A stretch of 31,212 nt of DNA from a virus. Taxonomy: Duplodnaviria; Caudoviricetes. The translations under genes were made by a program, and so were the position numbers. Below the pieces are notes generated by a model, which made no database searches, was not told where the DNA came from, and was given only the letters and a program-made list of their open reading frames with translations. The stretch's first letter is position 1, and the number at the start of each line of letters is the position of its first letter. This document shows, piece by piece, positions 4,372 to 31,212 of the stretch. The stretch is from the IMG/VR virus record IMGVR_UViG_3300020045_003717, positions 1-31,212 of that record; one strand, written 5' to 3'.

Positions 4372-7075
4372 AATAAAGATTGCAGAATTAGAGATAGACG
4401 ACAAAGCGTTGATTAAATCAACAAGCGATGTGAAGAAAGCAATTGACGAACTGAAAGCGGCGCAGAAAAGTTTGACGGCTGAGGGCGACACAAACTCAAA
4501 AGCCTATGTTAAAAACGCCGCCGATTTAAAGGTTTTAAATTCCGCCTATTCCGGTAACATTAAAGCACTTGCAGAAAGGACACAAGCAACCGTTGACGCA
4601 ACAAACAGAAACGAGTTAATGTCGTTAGCGTTGAATGAAGAAGTAATGTCAATTCAAATGGCACGAGATCAAAACAAGATACTCAATAAGATACGAAATG
4701 AAACCAATACGCTAACGGCGGAGGGTCGCGCTGAAATAGAACTGTTAAACAAGAAATTAGATTCAAATAACGAGTACATAAAAGAGAATGCAGATGCGTA
4801 TTTAAAGCAAAAAATAAATATTGGGAATTACAAAGAATCAATAATTGATGCTTTAAGTGCTCTAAATCCATTAAATACAAGTATGGGAGGGTTTTCTGAG
4901 AGAGCAAAAGATGCTGGGGGTGCGGGAAATTTATTTAAAACTACTTTAGGTGGAGTTATTTCGGGTATCTGGGGAATGATTAAAGCAAGTTTAGCCTTTA
5001 TAGCAACCCCAATAGGCGCGGTTATAGCGGCGGTAGCGGCGGTTTTCTTTACTTTATACAGCGTATTCAAGAACTTTCAACCGATATTAGATAAAGTTGA
5101 ACAAGGATTCGCCGCTTTAGGTGCGGTTTTAAATGTAATCAAGACCACAATTGTAGCGGTTGCAACCGGCGCAAAAGATTTAGGCTCTATATTCTCAGGG
5201 TTGGGCGGTGAAATGAAGAAAGCGGCGGCTGAGGCGGTGGCATTTACAAAGGCGCAACAAGATTTAGACGATGCTTTAGAGAAACAAGAGATTACATCCG
5301 CAAGAAATAGGGCGGAAATCGAACGATTAAACACGTTGGCAAAGGATAGAACCAAAACAGACGAAGAAAGAATCGCATTATTAAAGAAAGCTGAGGATAT
5401 TGAAACGGCAGACTACAACCAAAGGTTAAAAAATGCCAAAGAAGAAGAAAGAATCACGCTTCAAAAAATTAAAAGCGCGGCTAAATTAAACGATGCTGAA
5501 TACGCTCAGTTGGTTAAAAGTGGATTTGATTATAAAGAAACGGCAGAGGGCAAAGGTATGGCCGCCGATGAACTGTTTACCAAACTAAAAGAGAATCAGG
5601 TTAAGTTGGCCGGATTAGACCAACAGTACAATGTGAATCTTGAAAAAGGTATCAACAAACAAAACAAGTTGATTGAGGATGCAGCGGCTGAAAGAGAAAA
5701 GGCACAAGCGTTGGCAATCGAAAACGCAAGTAAAGCACTTGACTTAGCGATTGAAAAGAATCAAACTGAATTAGATTTATTTATAGCACAACAAGGGTAT
5801 AAAAAAATGTCATTGAATGATGAGTTGACATTCTCAAAATCTATAATGGAAAAAGAACTTGCAAACTTAAATTTTCTGTATAAGAAAAAACAAGTGAGTG
5901 AGTTGGAATACCAAACGCAAAAACTTGAAATACTAAACGCATTTGCACAAACACAAGCGGAAATTGCAGTCGAGGCGGCTGGTATTGAATTACAAAACCA
6001 TATAGATAAAAACAAGACTTTACTTGAAAATAATAAATTCCTTTCAGACGATTTATACTTACAAGAAGTTGCGAGGTTAGATGCTTTAAAACAAGCTGAG
6101 GACGAATTTCAATTAGCTAAATTAACTGAGGGCGTTATTAATTTGCAAGAATATGACGCGGCTATTACTGCAATTGACGCTGAAAACTTAAAGAAGAAAC
6201 AAGATTTAGAAACCCAACGAAAAGACGCTGAAAAAGAGCGTAAACTAATTGACCTTGAAAACGAACGCGTTTTAGCTGATGAAAGTTTTATCGCTGAGGC
6301 AGAAATAAGAAGCGCACAATTAGAAGAAAAGCGATTACAAGAGGTTGAAAATGCTGAAAAGACTGGGGCGGATATTGATTTAATAAACCAAAAATATGCT
6401 AAGGCTCAAAAGGATATAGATAAAAGTGTTGCGGATTATAAGTTAAGTCAATATAAAGAAACTTTTAAAATGATAGCTGGTTTATTTGGCCAACAAACAT
6501 TGATAGGAAAAGCGGCGGCAATCGCGGAAGTAGGTATAACCACTTATCAAACAGCAAGTAAATTGTTTCATATAGGCTCGGTAGAAGCGGCTTTAGCAGC
6601 AGCTAGCGCAGCTTCTTTAAATCCAATTGGCGCAGCGCAACATACCGTAGCCGCTGTAATAGCAAAAATTCAAGGCGGTTTAACTATCGCGTCAGGTGCG
6701 GCAACGGCGGCTAAAATAGCGGGCGTTAAATTTGAAAAAGGCGGTATTCAGGAAATAGGCGGTAAAAGTCACTCACAAGGCGGCACTAAATTTTATGGTG
6801 AAGATGGCACAATGTTCGAGGCTCAAAGCGGCGAAGGTATCGGAATATTAAACCGTTCCGCTTATGCTGGGTTTATGGATTTTAACAATTCATTTAACGG
6901 CGGTCAATCAGGTAACGGCAAGTTTGCGGGCGGTGGAATCATAACACAAGGCGTTAGACCAAACAACGATAACATCGCGCAAGCATTACAACAATTGAAT
7001 ATAATGGTAGCAGTTGAGGACATTAACAGAGGTCAAGGCAGTTACGCAAAAGTTATTGAAGGTGCTAACAGTTAA
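4364..7075 (+). CDS. Tail tape measure protein
   Basis: 903 aa, Ala/Lys/Glu-rich coiled coil, hydrophobic segment (PIGAVIAAVAAVFFTLY), C-terminal FEKGG...GGKSHSQGG motif. Confidence 0.8.
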   Translation: MAKIKIAELEIDDKALIKSTSDVKKAIDELKAAQKSLTAEGDTNSKAYVKNAADLKVLNSAYSGNIKALAERTQATVDATNRNELMSLALNEEVMSIQMARDQNKILNKIRNETNTLTAEGRAEIELLNKKLDSNNEYIKENADAYLKQKINIGNYKESIIDALSALNPLNTSMGGFSERAKDAGGAGNLFKTTLGGVISGIWGMIKASLAFIATPIGAVIAAVAAVFFTLYSVFKNFQPILDKVEQGFAALGAVLNVIKTTIVAVATGAKDLGSIFSGLGGEMKKAAAEAVAFTKAQQDLDDALEKQEITSARNRAEIERLNTLAKDRTKTDEERIALLKKAEDIETADYNQRLKNAKEEERITLQKIKSAAKLNDAEYAQLVKSGFDYKETAEGKGMAADELFTKLKENQVKLAGLDQQYNVNLEKGINKQNKLIEDAAAEREKAQALAIENASKALDLAIEKNQTELDLFIAQQGYKKMSLNDELTFSKSIMEKELANLNFLYKKKQVSELEYQTQKLEILNAFAQTQAEIAVEAAGIELQNHIDKNKTLLENNKFLSDDLYLQEVARLDALKQAEDEFQLAKLTEGVINLQEYDAAITAIDAENLKKKQDLETQRKDAEKERKLIDLENERVLADESFIAEAEIRSAQLEEKRLQEVENAEKTGADIDLINQKYAKAQKDIDKSVADYKLSQYKETFKMIAGLFGQQTLIGKAAAIAEVGITTYQTASKLFHIGSVEAALAAASAASLNPIGAAQHTVAAVIAKIQGGLTIASGAATAAKIAGVKFEKGGIQEIGGKSHSQGGTKFYGEDGTMFEAQSGEGIGILNRSAYAGFMDFNNSFNGGQSGNGKFAGGGIITQGVRPNNDNIAQALQQLNIMVAVEDINRGQGSYAKVIEGANS

Positions 7076-20393: not shown

Positions 20394-20401
20394 TATATTT
20401 G
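20394..20401 (+). promoter_or_regulatory. -7 promoter element for the integrase
   Basis: TATATTTG ending 17 nt before ATG 20419; abuts the arm repeats. Confidence 0.65.
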
Positions 20402-20418
20402 TGGTAAAAATTATCATT

Positions 20419-21654
20419 ATGTATTTTTATCTCAAAGAACCTAATTATTTGGTGCGCAAATCTACAATTATTTATTTAATATTTTATTGCAAAAATGACA
20501 AAAAAAACTTTAAATATTCGACAGGGCAAAAAATCGAGGTCGAGGATTGGGATTTTCCAAATAGGATGCCGATAACTAAACGTGGCTCAGGTGGTATTAT
20601 TTTAAGGCATATAAGCAACGTTTTAAACTCTTACGCTAAATTACTCGAAGATACAATAAAAGAGCGCGAGACGGTCAATAAACCGCTTACTCAGCAATAT
20701 TTAAAAGATACATTTGATAAAGTTTACAAACATAAAAAAGTAACAGAAATCACTAACAATGTAGTTATAGGCTTGCAAGATTTTATCGATGCGAAAAACT
20801 TAAGCGAAAACCAAAGCGATAATTGGAACGAAAAATATAAAAACCTTAAAGCAAAATTAGAATTTTTTGAATTGCACAAAGGTTTTAAAATTACATTCAA
20901 TGATTTTAATGCAGACCTACTCAACGAATATTGCGGATTTTTAAGAACGATAAAGAATGATAGGTTTTCACCGCATAATGACAACACTTTGCACCGTAAC
21001 GTTAATTTTTTGATAACCTTCTTTATTTGGGCTAAAGGCAAATACCATAATAACGAACCTTTAAAGAATCCCGTAAAAAAATACCAGCCGGATGATGTTC
21101 ATTTGACAAGTTTAGAAGTTGAAAAACTTGAAAACATAATTTTAGAAACTCGACATTTACAGAAAGTTCGCGATATATTTTTAATAGGCGTTTATTCTGG
21201 GCAAAGATTCAGCGATTATTCAGTATTTGAAAAGTCAGATTTACAAGGAAATATGATAATTAAACGTGCTGAGAAAACAGAATACGAAAGTTTTATACCA
21301 TTGCACCCTAAATTAAAAGCGTTACTTGATAAATATGATTGGAAAATACCAACAATAAGCAGCCAAAAGTTTAACGTAGCTATTCAGGATATATGTCTTA
21401 AATGCGAAATGACAGAAAGCATAAAAGAGACGATATACGCCGGCAATAAAAAAGAAGTTAAGTATAGTCCAAAATATAAAATGGTTGCGTCACATACAGC
21501 GCGAAGGACTTTTATAACGTTATCAAGCGAAAAGGGGCTGCCCGATCACATTATTATGAAAGTTACTGGTATTAGAGACCCGAAAACTTTGCAGAAATAT
21601 AAAAAGACATCAAACCAAAGTGTGACGGATGCCGTTAGTAAAATTTGGGGTTAA
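20419..21654 (+). CDS. int: Tyrosine integrase (arm-binding, SAM-like and catalytic domains)
   Basis: FKYSTG arm-binding motif, SGQRFSD (R), SHTARRTF (HxxR), LQKY (Y). ATG 20419 chosen because GTG 20401 overlaps the -7 box. Confidence 0.95.
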   Translation: MYFYLKEPNYLVRKSTIIYLIFYCKNDKKNFKYSTGQKIEVEDWDFPNRMPITKRGSGGIILRHISNVLNSYAKLLEDTIKERETVNKPLTQQYLKDTFDKVYKHKKVTEITNNVVIGLQDFIDAKNLSENQSDNWNEKYKNLKAKLEFFELHKGFKITFNDFNADLLNEYCGFLRTIKNDRFSPHNDNTLHRNVNFLITFFIWAKGKYHNNEPLKNPVKKYQPDDVHLTSLEVEKLENIILETRHLQKVRDIFLIGVYSGQRFSDYSVFEKSDLQGNMIIKRAEKTEYESFIPLHPKLKALLDKYDWKIPTISSQKFNVAIQDICLKCEMTESIKETIYAGNKKEVKYSPKYKMVASHTARRTFITLSSEKGLPDHIIMKVTGIRDPKTLQKYKKTSNQSVTDAVSKIWG

Positions 21655-21788: not shown

Positions 21789-21902
21789 ATGATGAAAAAT
21801 TTACGAATATTGTCAAAAAAAGACATTGAAATTGAAAAAGAATTTAATAGATTAAAAATTATTACAAATCAACTACTTCTTAAAAAATCCAAATCATCCT
21901 GA
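21789..21902 (+). CDS. 37-aa basic peptide overlapping the repressor 3' end in antisense
   Basis: MMKNLRILSKKDIEIEKEFNRLKIITNQLLLKKSKSS; preceded by TATATTTG (21749-21756) and an A-rich start context. Confidence 0.35.
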   Translation: MMKNLRILSKKDIEIEKEFNRLKIITNQLLLKKSKSS

Positions 21903-22237
21903 ATTTCATATTTATATTTGATTGTTTTTTTAATTAAAAATATCGAGTTAGGGTCTTTTTGAGACTCTAACTCTTTAATTCTATCAAGCACTTTAGCGAG
22001 TAAAACCTCTAATTCTGCAATTTGATTTTCATTATTGCTATTTTCTGCGCTTATATTATACGCATTAGATGCGTTTTTTAACAAATTCTTAACAAAAAAA
22101 GCGGTTGTTTCTGGTATTTGTCTTTCGTTTTTTTCCCAATATTGTAACGTCCGGAGCTTAATACCGACTTTTTCCGCCAGTTCCGTTTGATTTAACCCTA
22201 AAGTTTTTCTAATTTCTTTTAATTCTTCACCGCTCAT
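21869..22237 (-). CDS. XRE-family HTH repressor (CI-like, no peptidase S24 domain)
   Basis: LKEIRKTLGLNQTELAEKVGIKLRTLQYWEKNERQIP; short coiled-coil C-terminus; divergent from the early operon. Confidence 0.88.
   Translation of the reverse strand: MSGEELKEIRKTLGLNQTELAEKVGIKLRTLQYWEKNERQIPETTAFFVKNLLKNASNAYNISAENSNNENQIAELEVLLAKVLDRIKELESQKDPNSIFLIKKTIKYKYEIQDDLDFLRSS
22060..22074. promoter_or_regulatory. Putative distal operator inside the repressor gene
   Basis: ACGCAT-TAG-ATGCGT is a perfect inverted repeat with the same format as the intergenic operators. Confidence 0.5.
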
Positions 22238-22270
22238 TTTCAACTACTTATGTTTTATTTTAAAAATATT

Positions 22271-23420: not shown

Positions 23421-24014
23421 ATGAAAAATTTAGCATTAGCATTAGTAAAGGCTCAAAGCGAAATGAGCAACCCAACAAAAGGAAACACAAATCCTTTTTT
23501 CAAATCTAAATACGCCGATTTAAACGCGGTTCGTGAGGCGGTTATCCCGGTATTAAACGCAAACGGTATTAGTGTGTTACAACCTATAAAACACATTGAT
23601 GGTAAAAACTTTGTTGTAACGATTCTTTTACACGAAAGCGGTGAAATGATGGAAAGTTTTACAGAGATCGTTTATAACAAACAGAATGACGCTCAGGCGC
23701 AAGGTAGTGGAATTACTTACGCGCGCCGTTATGGTTTACAATCTTTTGTATGCGTTGGAGCTGATGACGATGACGGAAACAAAGCGAGCGTGAAGCCGGT
23801 AGAATCACCAAAAGCACAAAACGAAGCAATCACTAAAAATGTAGCGGCTATTCCTTCTCAAGTTTTAAACGAGATCACTAAGAAAATTGCTCAATCCACT
23901 ACACAAAAAGATTTAGCGGATTTATACAAAACTGAAATATCTAATATTAATCAGTTTCCAAGTTTAAAAGGAATGTTCACAAACAAAAAAATCTCATTAA
24001 ATGGAAACACTTAG
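23421..24014 (+). CDS. erf: ERF-family single-strand annealing protein
   Basis: NPFFKSKYADL and QAQGSGITYARRYGL...GADDDDGN signature. Confidence 0.93.
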   Translation: MKNLALALVKAQSEMSNPTKGNTNPFFKSKYADLNAVREAVIPVLNANGISVLQPIKHIDGKNFVVTILLHESGEMMESFTEIVYNKQNDAQAQGSGITYARRYGLQSFVCVGADDDDGNKASVKPVESPKAQNEAITKNVAAIPSQVLNEITKKIAQSTTQKDLADLYKTEISNINQFPSLKGMFTNKKISLNGNT

Positions 24015-24759
24015 TATTAATAAAACCGGAGGGATTGGCGCAAGCGAAGTTGGTAAACTTTTTACAAAGGAAGGTTTAAAAGGAAAAACAGCGCAAACAT
24101 TAGCTTATGAAAAAGCCTCAGAAATTATAAACGGTTACAAAAAAAGTTTTACAACTATCGCAATGCAACACGGTATTTTTAGCGAAGAAGAAGCTTTTAT
24201 AAATGTTGTGTTACCATTTTATCCTAATGCAAGTTATCAAAGTTCAGATTCAATTTTAATAAAAGAAGGTATTTGGGTTACTCCTGATGTAGTTGATGAT
24301 TACGAGGGTATTACAATAGATATTAAATGTCCTTATTCACCATTTACTTATTGGAATAATGTAAAAAAAATGCCGGACACTTATTTAAGTCAAAACCAAA
24401 TGCAAATGATAGGAACTGGCCACAAAAAAGGCGCAATCTGTTTGTATTTAACAAGTACAAATATTGACGAATGGGGAAATAAAATTGAGTTTGATATACC
24501 GTTATCTGAAAGACATTTATTTATTCCTATTGAAGCGCAACCGGAATATCAAAAAGAGATTATAGAACGCATAGACGCATTTTTTCCGATAAGGGATATA
24601 ATATACTCCCACTTAATAAAAGCGCGTGAGGTTTCAGATTATGAGTTTTTTCAACTATGCGGAACTAAGAAAATTACACGCTTTAAAGACAAATCTAATT
24701 TATTGACGTGGGAAAATAAAATAATCAAAAACGGTAATGAATTTTACACGGTAGAATAA
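24001..24759 (+). CDS. YqaJ/lambda-exonuclease-like nuclease
   Basis: IGASEV, AMQHG..SE, TPD, DIKCP and QNQMQM motifs; adjacent to ERF. Confidence 0.88.
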   Translation: METLSINKTGGIGASEVGKLFTKEGLKGKTAQTLAYEKASEIINGYKKSFTTIAMQHGIFSEEEAFINVVLPFYPNASYQSSDSILIKEGIWVTPDVVDDYEGITIDIKCPYSPFTYWNNVKKMPDTYLSQNQMQMIGTGHKKGAICLYLTSTNIDEWGNKIEFDIPLSERHLFIPIEAQPEYQKEIIERIDAFFPIRDIIYSHLIKAREVSDYEFFQLCGTKKITRFKDKSNLLTWENKIIKNGNEFYTVE

Positions 24760-29260: not shown

Positions 29261-29464
29261 CTATCTTAAAACCCACTCTTTATTAAGTGCCTTAGCGATA
29301 GCCTCCAGCTTAGAAAGGGTTGGGTTTCCTTTACCTTGTTCTAACATTGAGACCTCACGCTGGCTTAATTTAACGCCGGTTTCTTTTAGAACCATATCAG
29401 CTAATTCAATTTGGGTAATATCAAGAACCCTTCGCGCCTGTCTAATCTCTTTACCTATTTCCAT
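29261..29464 (-). CDS. Second XRE-family HTH regulator
   Basis: IGKEIRQARRVLDITQIELA...SQREVSMLEQGKGNPTLSKL. ATG 29464 preferred because a minus-strand -7 box TATATTTG occupies 29508-29501. Confidence 0.85.
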   Translation of the reverse strand: MEIGKEIRQARRVLDITQIELADMVLKETGVKLSQREVSMLEQGKGNPTLSKLEAIAKALNKEWVLR

Positions 29465-29500
29465 TGGGTCAAATTTATAAAAAAAAGTGTTTTCCATATG

Positions 29501-29601
29501 CAAATATAATACTTATTACATTAATTATTACATAGTAAGAATAAAATATTTAAAATAAATTATATTTTATGTTGTTTATGTTATATTATGTTGTACATTT
29601 A
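29501..29601. promoter_or_regulatory. Divergent promoter region of the accessory operon with repeats
   Basis: Plus strand TTG (29572-29574)-N19-TACATTTA (29594-29601); minus strand TATATTTG (29508-29501); TTATGTT three times (29567, 29576, 29586); TTATTACAT twice (29513, 29525). Confidence 0.6.
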
Positions 29602-29977: not shown

Positions 29978-30202
29978 ATGACACCAGTAGAATTATTAGA
30001 AGAAATCAAAAAAGACTATTTAGCCAAATTTGAAAACGATCCTGCGATTAATAGGGTTTGCACAGTAATGATTAATGAGTTTAAAGCACGAATTTTAAAA
30101 TTTGATTTGCCTGTTGTTGTAAAATCAGTTAAAGAAAACACAAAAAAACCTTTAACGAATGGGAGTAATGAAGATAGTATAAAAGCATTTTGGAAACCTT
30201 AA
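29978..30202 (+). CDS. Hypothetical protein spanning a GTT core site (LPVVV)
   Basis: 74 aa; core GTTGTAAAA at 30116 is in frame. Confidence 0.7.
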   Translation: MTPVELLEEIKKDYLAKFENDPAINRVCTVMINEFKARILKFDLPVVVKSVKENTKKPLTNGSNEDSIKAFWKP

Positions 30203-30274
30203 AATCGGCTTTAATGTTTTACAATGGAACAAGGTAAGATTAGTGCGAATTAATAAAAACTAAATTTAATAGAT

Positions 30275-30517
30275 ATGGAAGATTTAATTGAAAGACTAGA
30301 GGCTATAAACAAAACACTTTATAGTAAGTTCGGAAGCGAAAGTTATACCGAAAGATGTTTAATACAAGACGTAAAAACCGAAATGCAAGCATTAATTTTA
30401 CCCGTTGTTGTACGGCAAAGCGAACAGTTAGCGGCGTTTGTAGAATGGCATAATGAAAATTACCCAGAAAATTACATTACAAATAGTAGAATAGGATTGT
30501 ACAACATTAGCCAATAA
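30275..30517 (+). CDS. Hypothetical protein starting inside an attC-like loop and spanning a core site (LPVVV)
   Basis: 80 aa; core GTTGTACG at 30407 is in frame; stop lies 3 nt before the inverse core. Confidence 0.7.
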   Translation: MEDLIERLEAINKTLYSKFGSESYTERCLIQDVKTEMQALILPVVVRQSEQLAAFVEWHNENYPENYITNSRIGLYNISQ

Positions 30518-30614
30518 TTGCGTACAACTTACAAGTGCAACCTTTTGTATTTTTTTTAAAAGCGTAGGCAAACTGTGAAACAGAATAGAATTTTAATTTA
30601 AAACAATAAATATT

Positions 30615-30989
30615 ATGCAAACACAAATTTTAATAGGATTGTTCTTTTGCCATTTTTTGGCAGATTACACTCATTTATCAACTTCTTTTATGCTAAACGC
30701 AAAGAGATTAGGAAAACCATTTTACCCAATATTTTTACACGCAACAATACACGCTGTAATAATGCTTTTATTCTTAAATATTGTTTTTGGTATTAATGGA
30801 AATTTATTAATTTATTTATTTCTCATTCAAATAATATCACATTTTTTAATTGATGTTTGGAAAGGTATAATGAATGGTTGGTTTCCTGAATTACAAAACC
30901 CTGCAAATAAATGGCATTGGATTGTTTTTGGATTTGACCAATATTTACACGCATTAATTATAATCACAATGTCTTTTTTAGCGGTGTAG
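30615..30989 (+). CDS. DUF3307 family His-rich membrane protein
   Basis: HFLADY, HATIH, HFLID and GFDQYLH motifs with TM helices. Confidence 0.85.
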   Translation: MQTQILIGLFFCHFLADYTHLSTSFMLNAKRLGKPFYPIFLHATIHAVIMLLFLNIVFGINGNLLIYLFLIQIISHFLIDVWKGIMNGWFPELQNPANKWHWIVFGFDQYLHALIIITMSFLAV

Positions 30990-31177
30990 ATGGCTTAAAA
31001 AACAATATAAAGGCTGCGCGGTGTTGCTGTTTGTTTTGGGTGGATGGAAACAAATTGTAATTGTTGGCGATTCATCGCCCAATATAAACTGCAACGGTGA
31101 AGAATATGAAAAGATGGCATTAATATATAGAATTTTCATATTTTTTTGATAGTAAACTTAAGATTAATAAACGGAAT

Positions 31178-31212
31178 ATGAACGACAATGTAGCCATTTT
31201 TTTATATGCGTT
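31178..31212 (+). CDS. Start of a 3'-truncated ORF (MNDNVAIFLYA...) inside the last attC-like loop
   Basis: ATG with A-rich context; open to the window end; only 11 codons visible. Confidence 0.35.
   Translation, partial: MNDNVAIFLYA

Follow-up and report, generated by a model that had tools for sequence, protein, structure and literature searches.

The window analyzed here, i.e., the whole stretch of 31,212 nucleotides of a virus of the Caudoviricetes (IMGVR_UViG_3300020045_003717), ends in a series of paired motifs that run through small genes. The question raised by this locus is whether these motifs form an array of mobile cassettes like those of integrons and, if so, how modules are exchanged in a phage that does not encode an integron integrase (IntI).

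The contig holds part of a temperate phage genome, with head genes and genes for an endolysin, an integrase, Erf, an exonuclease, SSB, NinG and a repressor-like protein. A second helix-turn-helix-like ORF lies directly after the integrase gene (21900-22240, minus strand). A sister contig, L001, is 88-93% identical to the window over the main backbone blocks. In L001, the array extends from just after the equivalent of position 29979 up to the small terminase gene; thus, the window contains only the first 1.2 kb of the array. The arrayed cargo of this aquatic phage consists of small early genes. The host is presumably a member of the Bacteroidota, since the same type of site occurs there.

Grammar of the array

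In the array, A segments (AAC, 7 nt, arm, loop, arm, 4 nt, GTT) alternate with self-complementary B segments (GTT to AAC). Their order in the window is B1, A1, B2, A2, B3, A3, and the five complete segments from B1 to B3 abut. The features are as follows:

20401-21654: phage-type integrase, 417 aa
23421-24014: gene for the Erf-like annealing protein
24001-24759: exonuclease gene
29261-29503: repressor-like, helix-turn-helix-like gene
29978-30202, plus strand: gene 1, 74 aa; front half located in a remnant site that lacks the left arm, back half in B1; the GTT core is codon 47
30116-30225, plus strand: B1; core 30116-30124, inverse core 30217-30225, ending in AAT
30225-30527, plus strand: putative mobile unit 1 (A1 with B2, cut at AA/C); boundary rule taken from the breakpoints in relatives
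30226-30406, plus strand: A1; 7-nt spacer, arm 30233-30246, arm 30389-30402, 4-nt spacer
30275-30517, plus strand: gene 2, 80 aa; chimeric, with its junction at the GTT core (codon 45)
30407-30528, plus strand: B2; core 30407-30414, inverse core 30521-30528
30528-31094, plus strand: putative mobile unit 2 (A2 with B3), an inside-out cassette with its gene in the arm loop
30529-31022, plus strand: A2, interior of a giant site; 495 nt from AAC to GTT; arms 30536-30557 and 30997-31018
30615-30989, plus strand: gene for a DUF3307 membrane protein (PF11750), whole between the A2 arms
31023-31095, plus strand: B3, a 73-nt hairpin without a gene of its own
31096-31212, plus strand: A3; arms 31104-31118 and 31193-31207; closing GTT past the contig end

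All 12 core, inverse-core and arm strings listed in the original prediction were found in place, and the four mismatches in arm pairs 1 and 3, which pair without bulges, are indeed all G-T on the plus strand. Other parts of that description need refinement. The spacers of about 7 and 4 nt have exactly these lengths at sites 1 and 2, whereas those of site 3 measure 8 and 5 nt in the same register. The inverse cores are located as described, but the first one ends in AAT rather than AAC. In arm pair 2, pairing extends over 10 nt and resumes over an A/T run, but is poor in between. The third site has its core, inverse core and arms but is incomplete, since the contig stops at 31212, where its GTT would begin. 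A left arm for the first core (30116) was not found; no candidate scored above 16.

Chance pairing in AT-rich DNA would be in line with the single A-like matches, scoring 13-22.5, that occur throughout the genome. However, the chain B1-A1-B2-A2-B3 scores 104, a value that none of 600 dinucleotide shuffles reaches (mean 33, maximum 73), whilst 98 real windows of the same genome score at most 71.5 and the array region's own minus strand 43.5. Since the descriptor was written after the finding had been seen, these scores overstate the significance. L001 offers an independent check, as its array and genes are different but follow the same alternating grammar. Furthermore, a scan of viral sequences with the start of A2 returned chance matches, and just 3 of these 107 showed even a weak site. 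The chain score, the L001 array and the events in Lillamyvirus described below refute chance, which we consider next to impossible; the pattern is real. The window scoring 71.5, at 21600, looked like AT-rich noise.

Scans of phages and chromosomes, as suggested in the original prediction, revealed the same sites in other phages and in Bacteroidota chromosomes. A search of the array region against cultured phages gave no match, and in viral contigs the B3 pattern was matched by the L001 contig only. A metagenome scan for the B3 hairpin (122 loci) gave no B3 relative among the AT-rich loci listed. Its chance matches included unrelated short tandem palindromic repeats containing GTAGGCGATTCATCGCC (L056, L097-L100, L116).

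Exchange at AAC and at GTT

Nine genomes of cultured Flavobacterium phages of the genus Lillamyvirus, isolates of which were sequenced by Nilsson et al. (2020; PMC7077304), were compared over ~8 kb each. They show seven differences, i.e., three indels, one swap, two losses and one relocation. All seven involve an A segment with its downstream B segment and break in shared sequence that contains TAAC on the coding strand, and none breaks at GTT. In the relocation, a 439-bp unit located at 5642-6080 in lillamy9-1 is found at 2037-2475 in lillamy9-7, where it is 100% identical and sits at the armless last AAC, at the downstream end of the array. The cleanest events are found in phages with short, gene-free A segments. 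As all seven events lie at TAAC, the earlier proposal that units bounded at AA/C are gained, lost and moved is supported in these cultured relatives. The same holds for the proposed orientation, opposite to that of classical cassettes: units break at AAC on the coding strand, with the site in front of the gene. The breakpoints sit within 5-12 nt of shared sequence, which leaves the exact cut base unfixed and allows for microhomology-driven events. Judged from these breakpoints in sequence data, the coding strand would be the one that is cut.

The Lillamyvirus events also bear on the idea that the pairing is mRNA structure controlling translation or stability of the early genes. The arms flank leaders, and the pairs in the window and L001 include 14 G-T against 1 A-C, a bias that is partly built into the scoring and that would fit G-U pairs. 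As the plus strand is also the message, this bias cannot separate folded DNA from mRNA, and it is absent in lillamy9-1 (13 G-T and 14 A-C). Such a role leaves the invariant AAC and GTT triplets, the fixed spacers and the DNA breaks at TAAC unexplained, and as the sole cause it is largely refuted by the exact relocation of the 439-bp unit. We regard it as very unlikely, although the RNA might play a secondary part.

Scans for single segments extend these observations. One A family, chosen regardless of its neighbors, was found at 67 loci (65 without duplicates), 41 of which have a full site. These 41 loci show 40 different upstream ends, whilst the same downstream leader follows in 37 of 40 and a different B segment in the other three. 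In a scan for one B end (76 loci, from which 21 were dropped as chance matches or duplicates and to which 10 others were added), shared B segments (10 pairs) are identical through the C of AAC, and beyond it, identity falls to 0.1-0.6.

For the window's own units, the evidence is limited to neighbor changes in contigs of other phages, from freshwater and runoff runs. Among the loose ends listed (24 of 68, with short sides), seven join window segments to other neighbors at AAC (30217-30224, 30526): a different A segment begins directly after 30224, behind B1; other B ends precede A1 at 30217-30223; and a different B end is joined at 30526, ahead of A2. These changes hint at exchange of the window's own segments at AAC. 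B3, the only segment of the array shared with L001, has different A neighbors there on both sides and a compensatory change from C-G to T-A in the core; its upstream partners are three, i.e., those in the window, in L001 and in contigs of two runs. Contigs starting at 30117, which might be taken for exchange at G/TT, owe their start to a variant at 30147 and were left uncounted. The idea of an additional cut, separating the right arm from the 4-nt spacer, was ruled out, as the spacer stays with the A segment when the next B changes.

GTT appears in these data as a further point of exchange. At 30116 and 30407, the cores supply in-frame valine codons (codon 47 of gene 1 and codon 45 of gene 2), and the A1 loop consists of a leader plus the first 44 codons of gene 2. 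Among 22 relatives of gene 2, 14 share only the front half, eight only the back half and none both, and 12 have valine at the junction codon. Similarly, among relatives of gene 1, P0003 combines the front of gene 1 with a different back, whereas P0004 shares the back (97%), preceded by a front whose last residues are those encoded by A1 in gene 2. Since the genes cross GTT in frame and have relatives that share one half, GTT is a second exchange point, used less often than AAC. Exchange at GTT is rare where genes lie wholly in B segments, but it has been frequent enough in the lineage of the window to yield chimeric proteins. Consequently, the units proposed earlier retain their AA/C boundaries but are not all fixed whole-gene units, as genes 1 and 2 are chimeric, the front being encoded by an A segment and the back by a B segment. 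Some joins change the frame, as seen in one relative of gene 2 (P0017), which reads through the junction in another register (NYSRCY). A search of viral contigs gave no relative of gene 2, and a word-index search returned gene 2 itself only. Two routes could account for exchange at GTT: the opposite strand may occasionally be cut at G/TT, or the short conserved frame may undergo homologous recombination.

Homologous recombination could also be invoked for the array as a whole. Short homology arms would then allow the Erf-like annealing protein and the exonuclease, both encoded by the phage, to swap modules, and the folding would be a leftover. Indeed, in some contigs the A1/B2 frame is retained around different cargo (joints at 30244-30280 to 30375-30391), and the chimeras switch near the conserved frame. 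Such frames with replaced cargo suggest that some of the GTT exchange proceeds via this route, which likely contributes to cargo swaps as well. However, neighboring units have only 5-12 nt in common, yet all seven breaks lie at TAAC; one unit re-entered intact elsewhere; and pairing is kept by compensatory change rather than by sequence identity. Hence, as an explanation of the entire array, homologous recombination is unlikely.

Two side observations concern B segments. Many unrelated genes, in B segments of 272-641 nt, share one start and end frame (L142-L217), showing that cargo is replaced inside a kept frame, which bears on the birth of cassettes. Additionally, two B segments (L143, 2095-2516; L186, 1342-1763) combine the core of one sub-family with the inverse core of another and are, thus, hybrids formed by recombination inside B.

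Sites that enclose genes

The window's two complete sites measure 182 and 495 nt and have coding sequence inside, and two A segments of L001 measure 554 nt, with a whole YopX gene, and 603 nt. Sites longer than 200 nt make up three of seven in the window and L001 together, vs. none of 149 well-linked sites in other phages and bacterial genomes. Each of the three holds a whole ORF, although one has a doubtful downstream B segment. All three (495, 554 and 603 nt) are followed by a gene-free B segment of 72-73 nt. These hairpins form a family that closes the largest gene-holding sites (L001 15509-15584 and 13507-13579; window 31023-31095) and are possibly structured elements of their own. A2 and the YopX site of L001 have both spacers (window 30529-30535 and 31019-31022; L001 12954-12960 and 13503-13506) and B3 in common, whilst their arms and genes are unrelated. 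Furthermore, a short stop-codon motif, GTGTAGATGGCT, recurs at the ends of cargo genes in giant A segments (window 30985-30998; L001 about 14717 and 15425), which suggests a fixed inner frame in which genes are swapped.

Do such large sites fold? As linear DNA, the predicted stem of site 1 does not form (z 0.65), and A2 with B3 is no more stable than its shuffles (z -0.9); with such weak linear folding, giant sites may excise poorly. When the plus strand is folded as a circle, the predicted stem probabilities are 0.85-0.96 for unit 1 and 0.77-0.83 for unit 2. Both stems are predicted at 0.64-1.0 in seven of eight units, the remaining one (L001 u4) having weak stems (0.33-0.44 at 37°C). In all eight, the plus strand has a lower predicted energy as a circle than the minus strand.

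The giant sites might instead be inactive, i.e., decaying cassette remnants from host arrays, the loops of which were entered by genes through illegitimate events. The weak linear folding, the AAT at inverse core 1, the left arm missing at the first core and the lack of an array recombinase in the phage are all in line with decay. So is the position of the DUF3307 gene, which normally lies in B: in its closest relatives (L004, L010, L019), the gene is in a B segment between short A segments, whereas in the window it lies inside A. Nevertheless, the giant sites of L001 have intact pairing around different genes, the sites are predicted to fold well as circles, and both A2 and B3 are joined to other partners precisely at AAC. 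Decay is, therefore, an improbable explanation.

Candidate recombinase and relation to known systems

As predicted originally, the phage has no IntI, since its integrase (20401-21654) does not match TIGR02249. The phage's own integrase was considered as an enzyme of the array-linked type discussed below, but it does not align with those enzymes. The alternative raised earlier, a recombinase supplied by the host, gains a candidate beside bacterial arrays; this candidate is Xer-like, without the IntI insertion, and hence not IntI. A scan for the site motif in bacterial genomes gave 123 loci, 80 of which were examined; 36 have a real site, nearly all of them in Bacteroidota. A tyrosine recombinase is encoded near the site at eight of these 36 loci vs. 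none of the other 44, whilst in 28 of the 36 there is no recombinase within the DNA examined. In all eight, it is Xer-like and lies downstream of the array on the opposite strand. In integrons, the entry of the array carries an attI site and a Pc promoter. In three of the eight loci, an armless AAC, like the one that received the moved unit in lillamy9-7, lies 71-405 nt from the recombinase gene; the equivalent array end of the window is beyond the contig. All eight enzymes score below the 265-bit cut-off of TIGR02249, with split matches. Their best or second-best match is NF040815, and they align to XerA without a gap. One of them, aligned to VchIntI4, is ~42 residues shorter where IntI has its insertion. 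Given their proximity to the sites, these enzymes may act on them and may be borrowed by the phage.

In our view, the cassettes of the array are likely recombined site-specifically, as single strands, by an Xer-like enzyme of the host. The A/B grammar, the unit-specific pairing and the exact gain, loss and relocation of A with its downstream B at TAAC are observed, whereas the chemistry and the strand folding are deduced from them. Modules would be exchanged between related phages at folding AAC-to-GTT sites, probably by an Xer-like tyrosine recombinase that is encoded by the host and, in the manner of integron integrases, acts on single strands. In the coding strand, the AAC of one B segment would pair with the GTT of the next across the arms of the A segment. 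A cut at AA/C would free a circle with the site first and the gene after it, and this circle could re-enter at another AAC, often the last one of an array, after which replication would resolve the product. In the lineage of the window, the A loop may have grown to take up a leader with half a gene, or a whole gene, and be closed by a gene-free B segment of 72-73 nt. A bolder version can be put forward only tentatively: a second, mirror-image integron system may exist in Bacteroidota and their phages, in which an Xer-like enzyme is able to cut one or the other strand of the same folded site. AA/C would then move whole genes, whilst in-frame G/TT would re-join the fronts and backs of proteins, making the array a combinatorial generator of proteins, and whole genes could ride inside a site.

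If correct, this would explain how the small-gene regions of aquatic Bacteroidota phages become hypervariable and would open a route for trading genes with host chromosomes. Single-strand cassette recombination would then work without the IntI insertion and at sites several times the size of known attC sites, which would probably escape attC search tools. With cores in frame, recombination could assemble new proteins, a possibility relevant to the question of how cassettes arise. That cassette cargo can matter is exemplified by the methyltransferase of sniff9-1 (gp017; record 6210-7052), which lies in a two-unit insert, a19-B20-a20-B21 (L405-L413), that the sniff and snork phages carry but lillamy and morran lack. 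This methyltransferase was linked to plating on host LMO6, where titers were ~10^4-fold lower without it among the rows listed (Nilsson et al., 2020; PMC7077304); the link is a correlation. The words integron and cassette are absent from the main text of that paper.

How does the array relate to known systems? Like integron attC sites, its sites have AAC/GTT R boxes, unit-specific cores and inverse cores, an unpaired central spacer and paired R and L boxes, and they keep structure rather than sequence. In attC sites, extrahelical bases of the L box select the strand; arm pairs 1 and 3 of the window are free of bulges. As in integron arrays, small genes are lost and reordered as whole units at the R box. 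Xer enzymes act on double-stranded dif sites. The array-linked host enzymes resemble XerA/XerC/XerD-like tyrosine recombinases (NF040815; PDB 5hxy, 4a8e) in lacking the IntI-specific insertion, and unlike Xer they adjoin arrays of hairpin cassettes. Bacteroidota are listed, without detail, among the integron-bearing phyla (PMC8618304).

Phage genomes, including that of Polaribacter phage P12002L, have been reported to contain CALINs (Qi et al., 2023; PMC9892861), i.e., clusters of attC-like sites without an integrase, often with methyltransferase cargo. The oligonucleotide P12002L_attC1 has the 7/4 geometry of the window and was the one of six sites that was not recombined by IntI1 (PMC9892861). 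In the parts of that paper considered here, phage sites are treated as ordinary IntI substrates, with no mention of units in mirror orientation, genes enclosed by sites, chimeric genes or an enzyme other than IntI. A search of the open-access literature did not find a description of this cassette system. A CALIN comprises two or more attC-type sites with no integron integrase nearby; the window has two complete sites and no IntI, but its sites differ from attC in orientation and length. An integron cassette consists of a gene followed by its own attC, with crossover at G/TT of the bottom strand, whereas the phage unit is a site plus downstream gene that breaks at AAC, and exchange at G/TT is a minor route (3 of 40) that fuses genes in frame. 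The spacers measure 7 and 3-4 nt vs. five to six per arm in attC, and the sites span 180-600 nt and hold genes, whereas known attC sites measure 57-141 bp (Nivina et al., 2016; PMC5027507), with loops of 20-100 nt (Cury et al., 10.1101/030866). Thus, the array works like integron cassettes but stands apart from them in orientation, site size and integrase.
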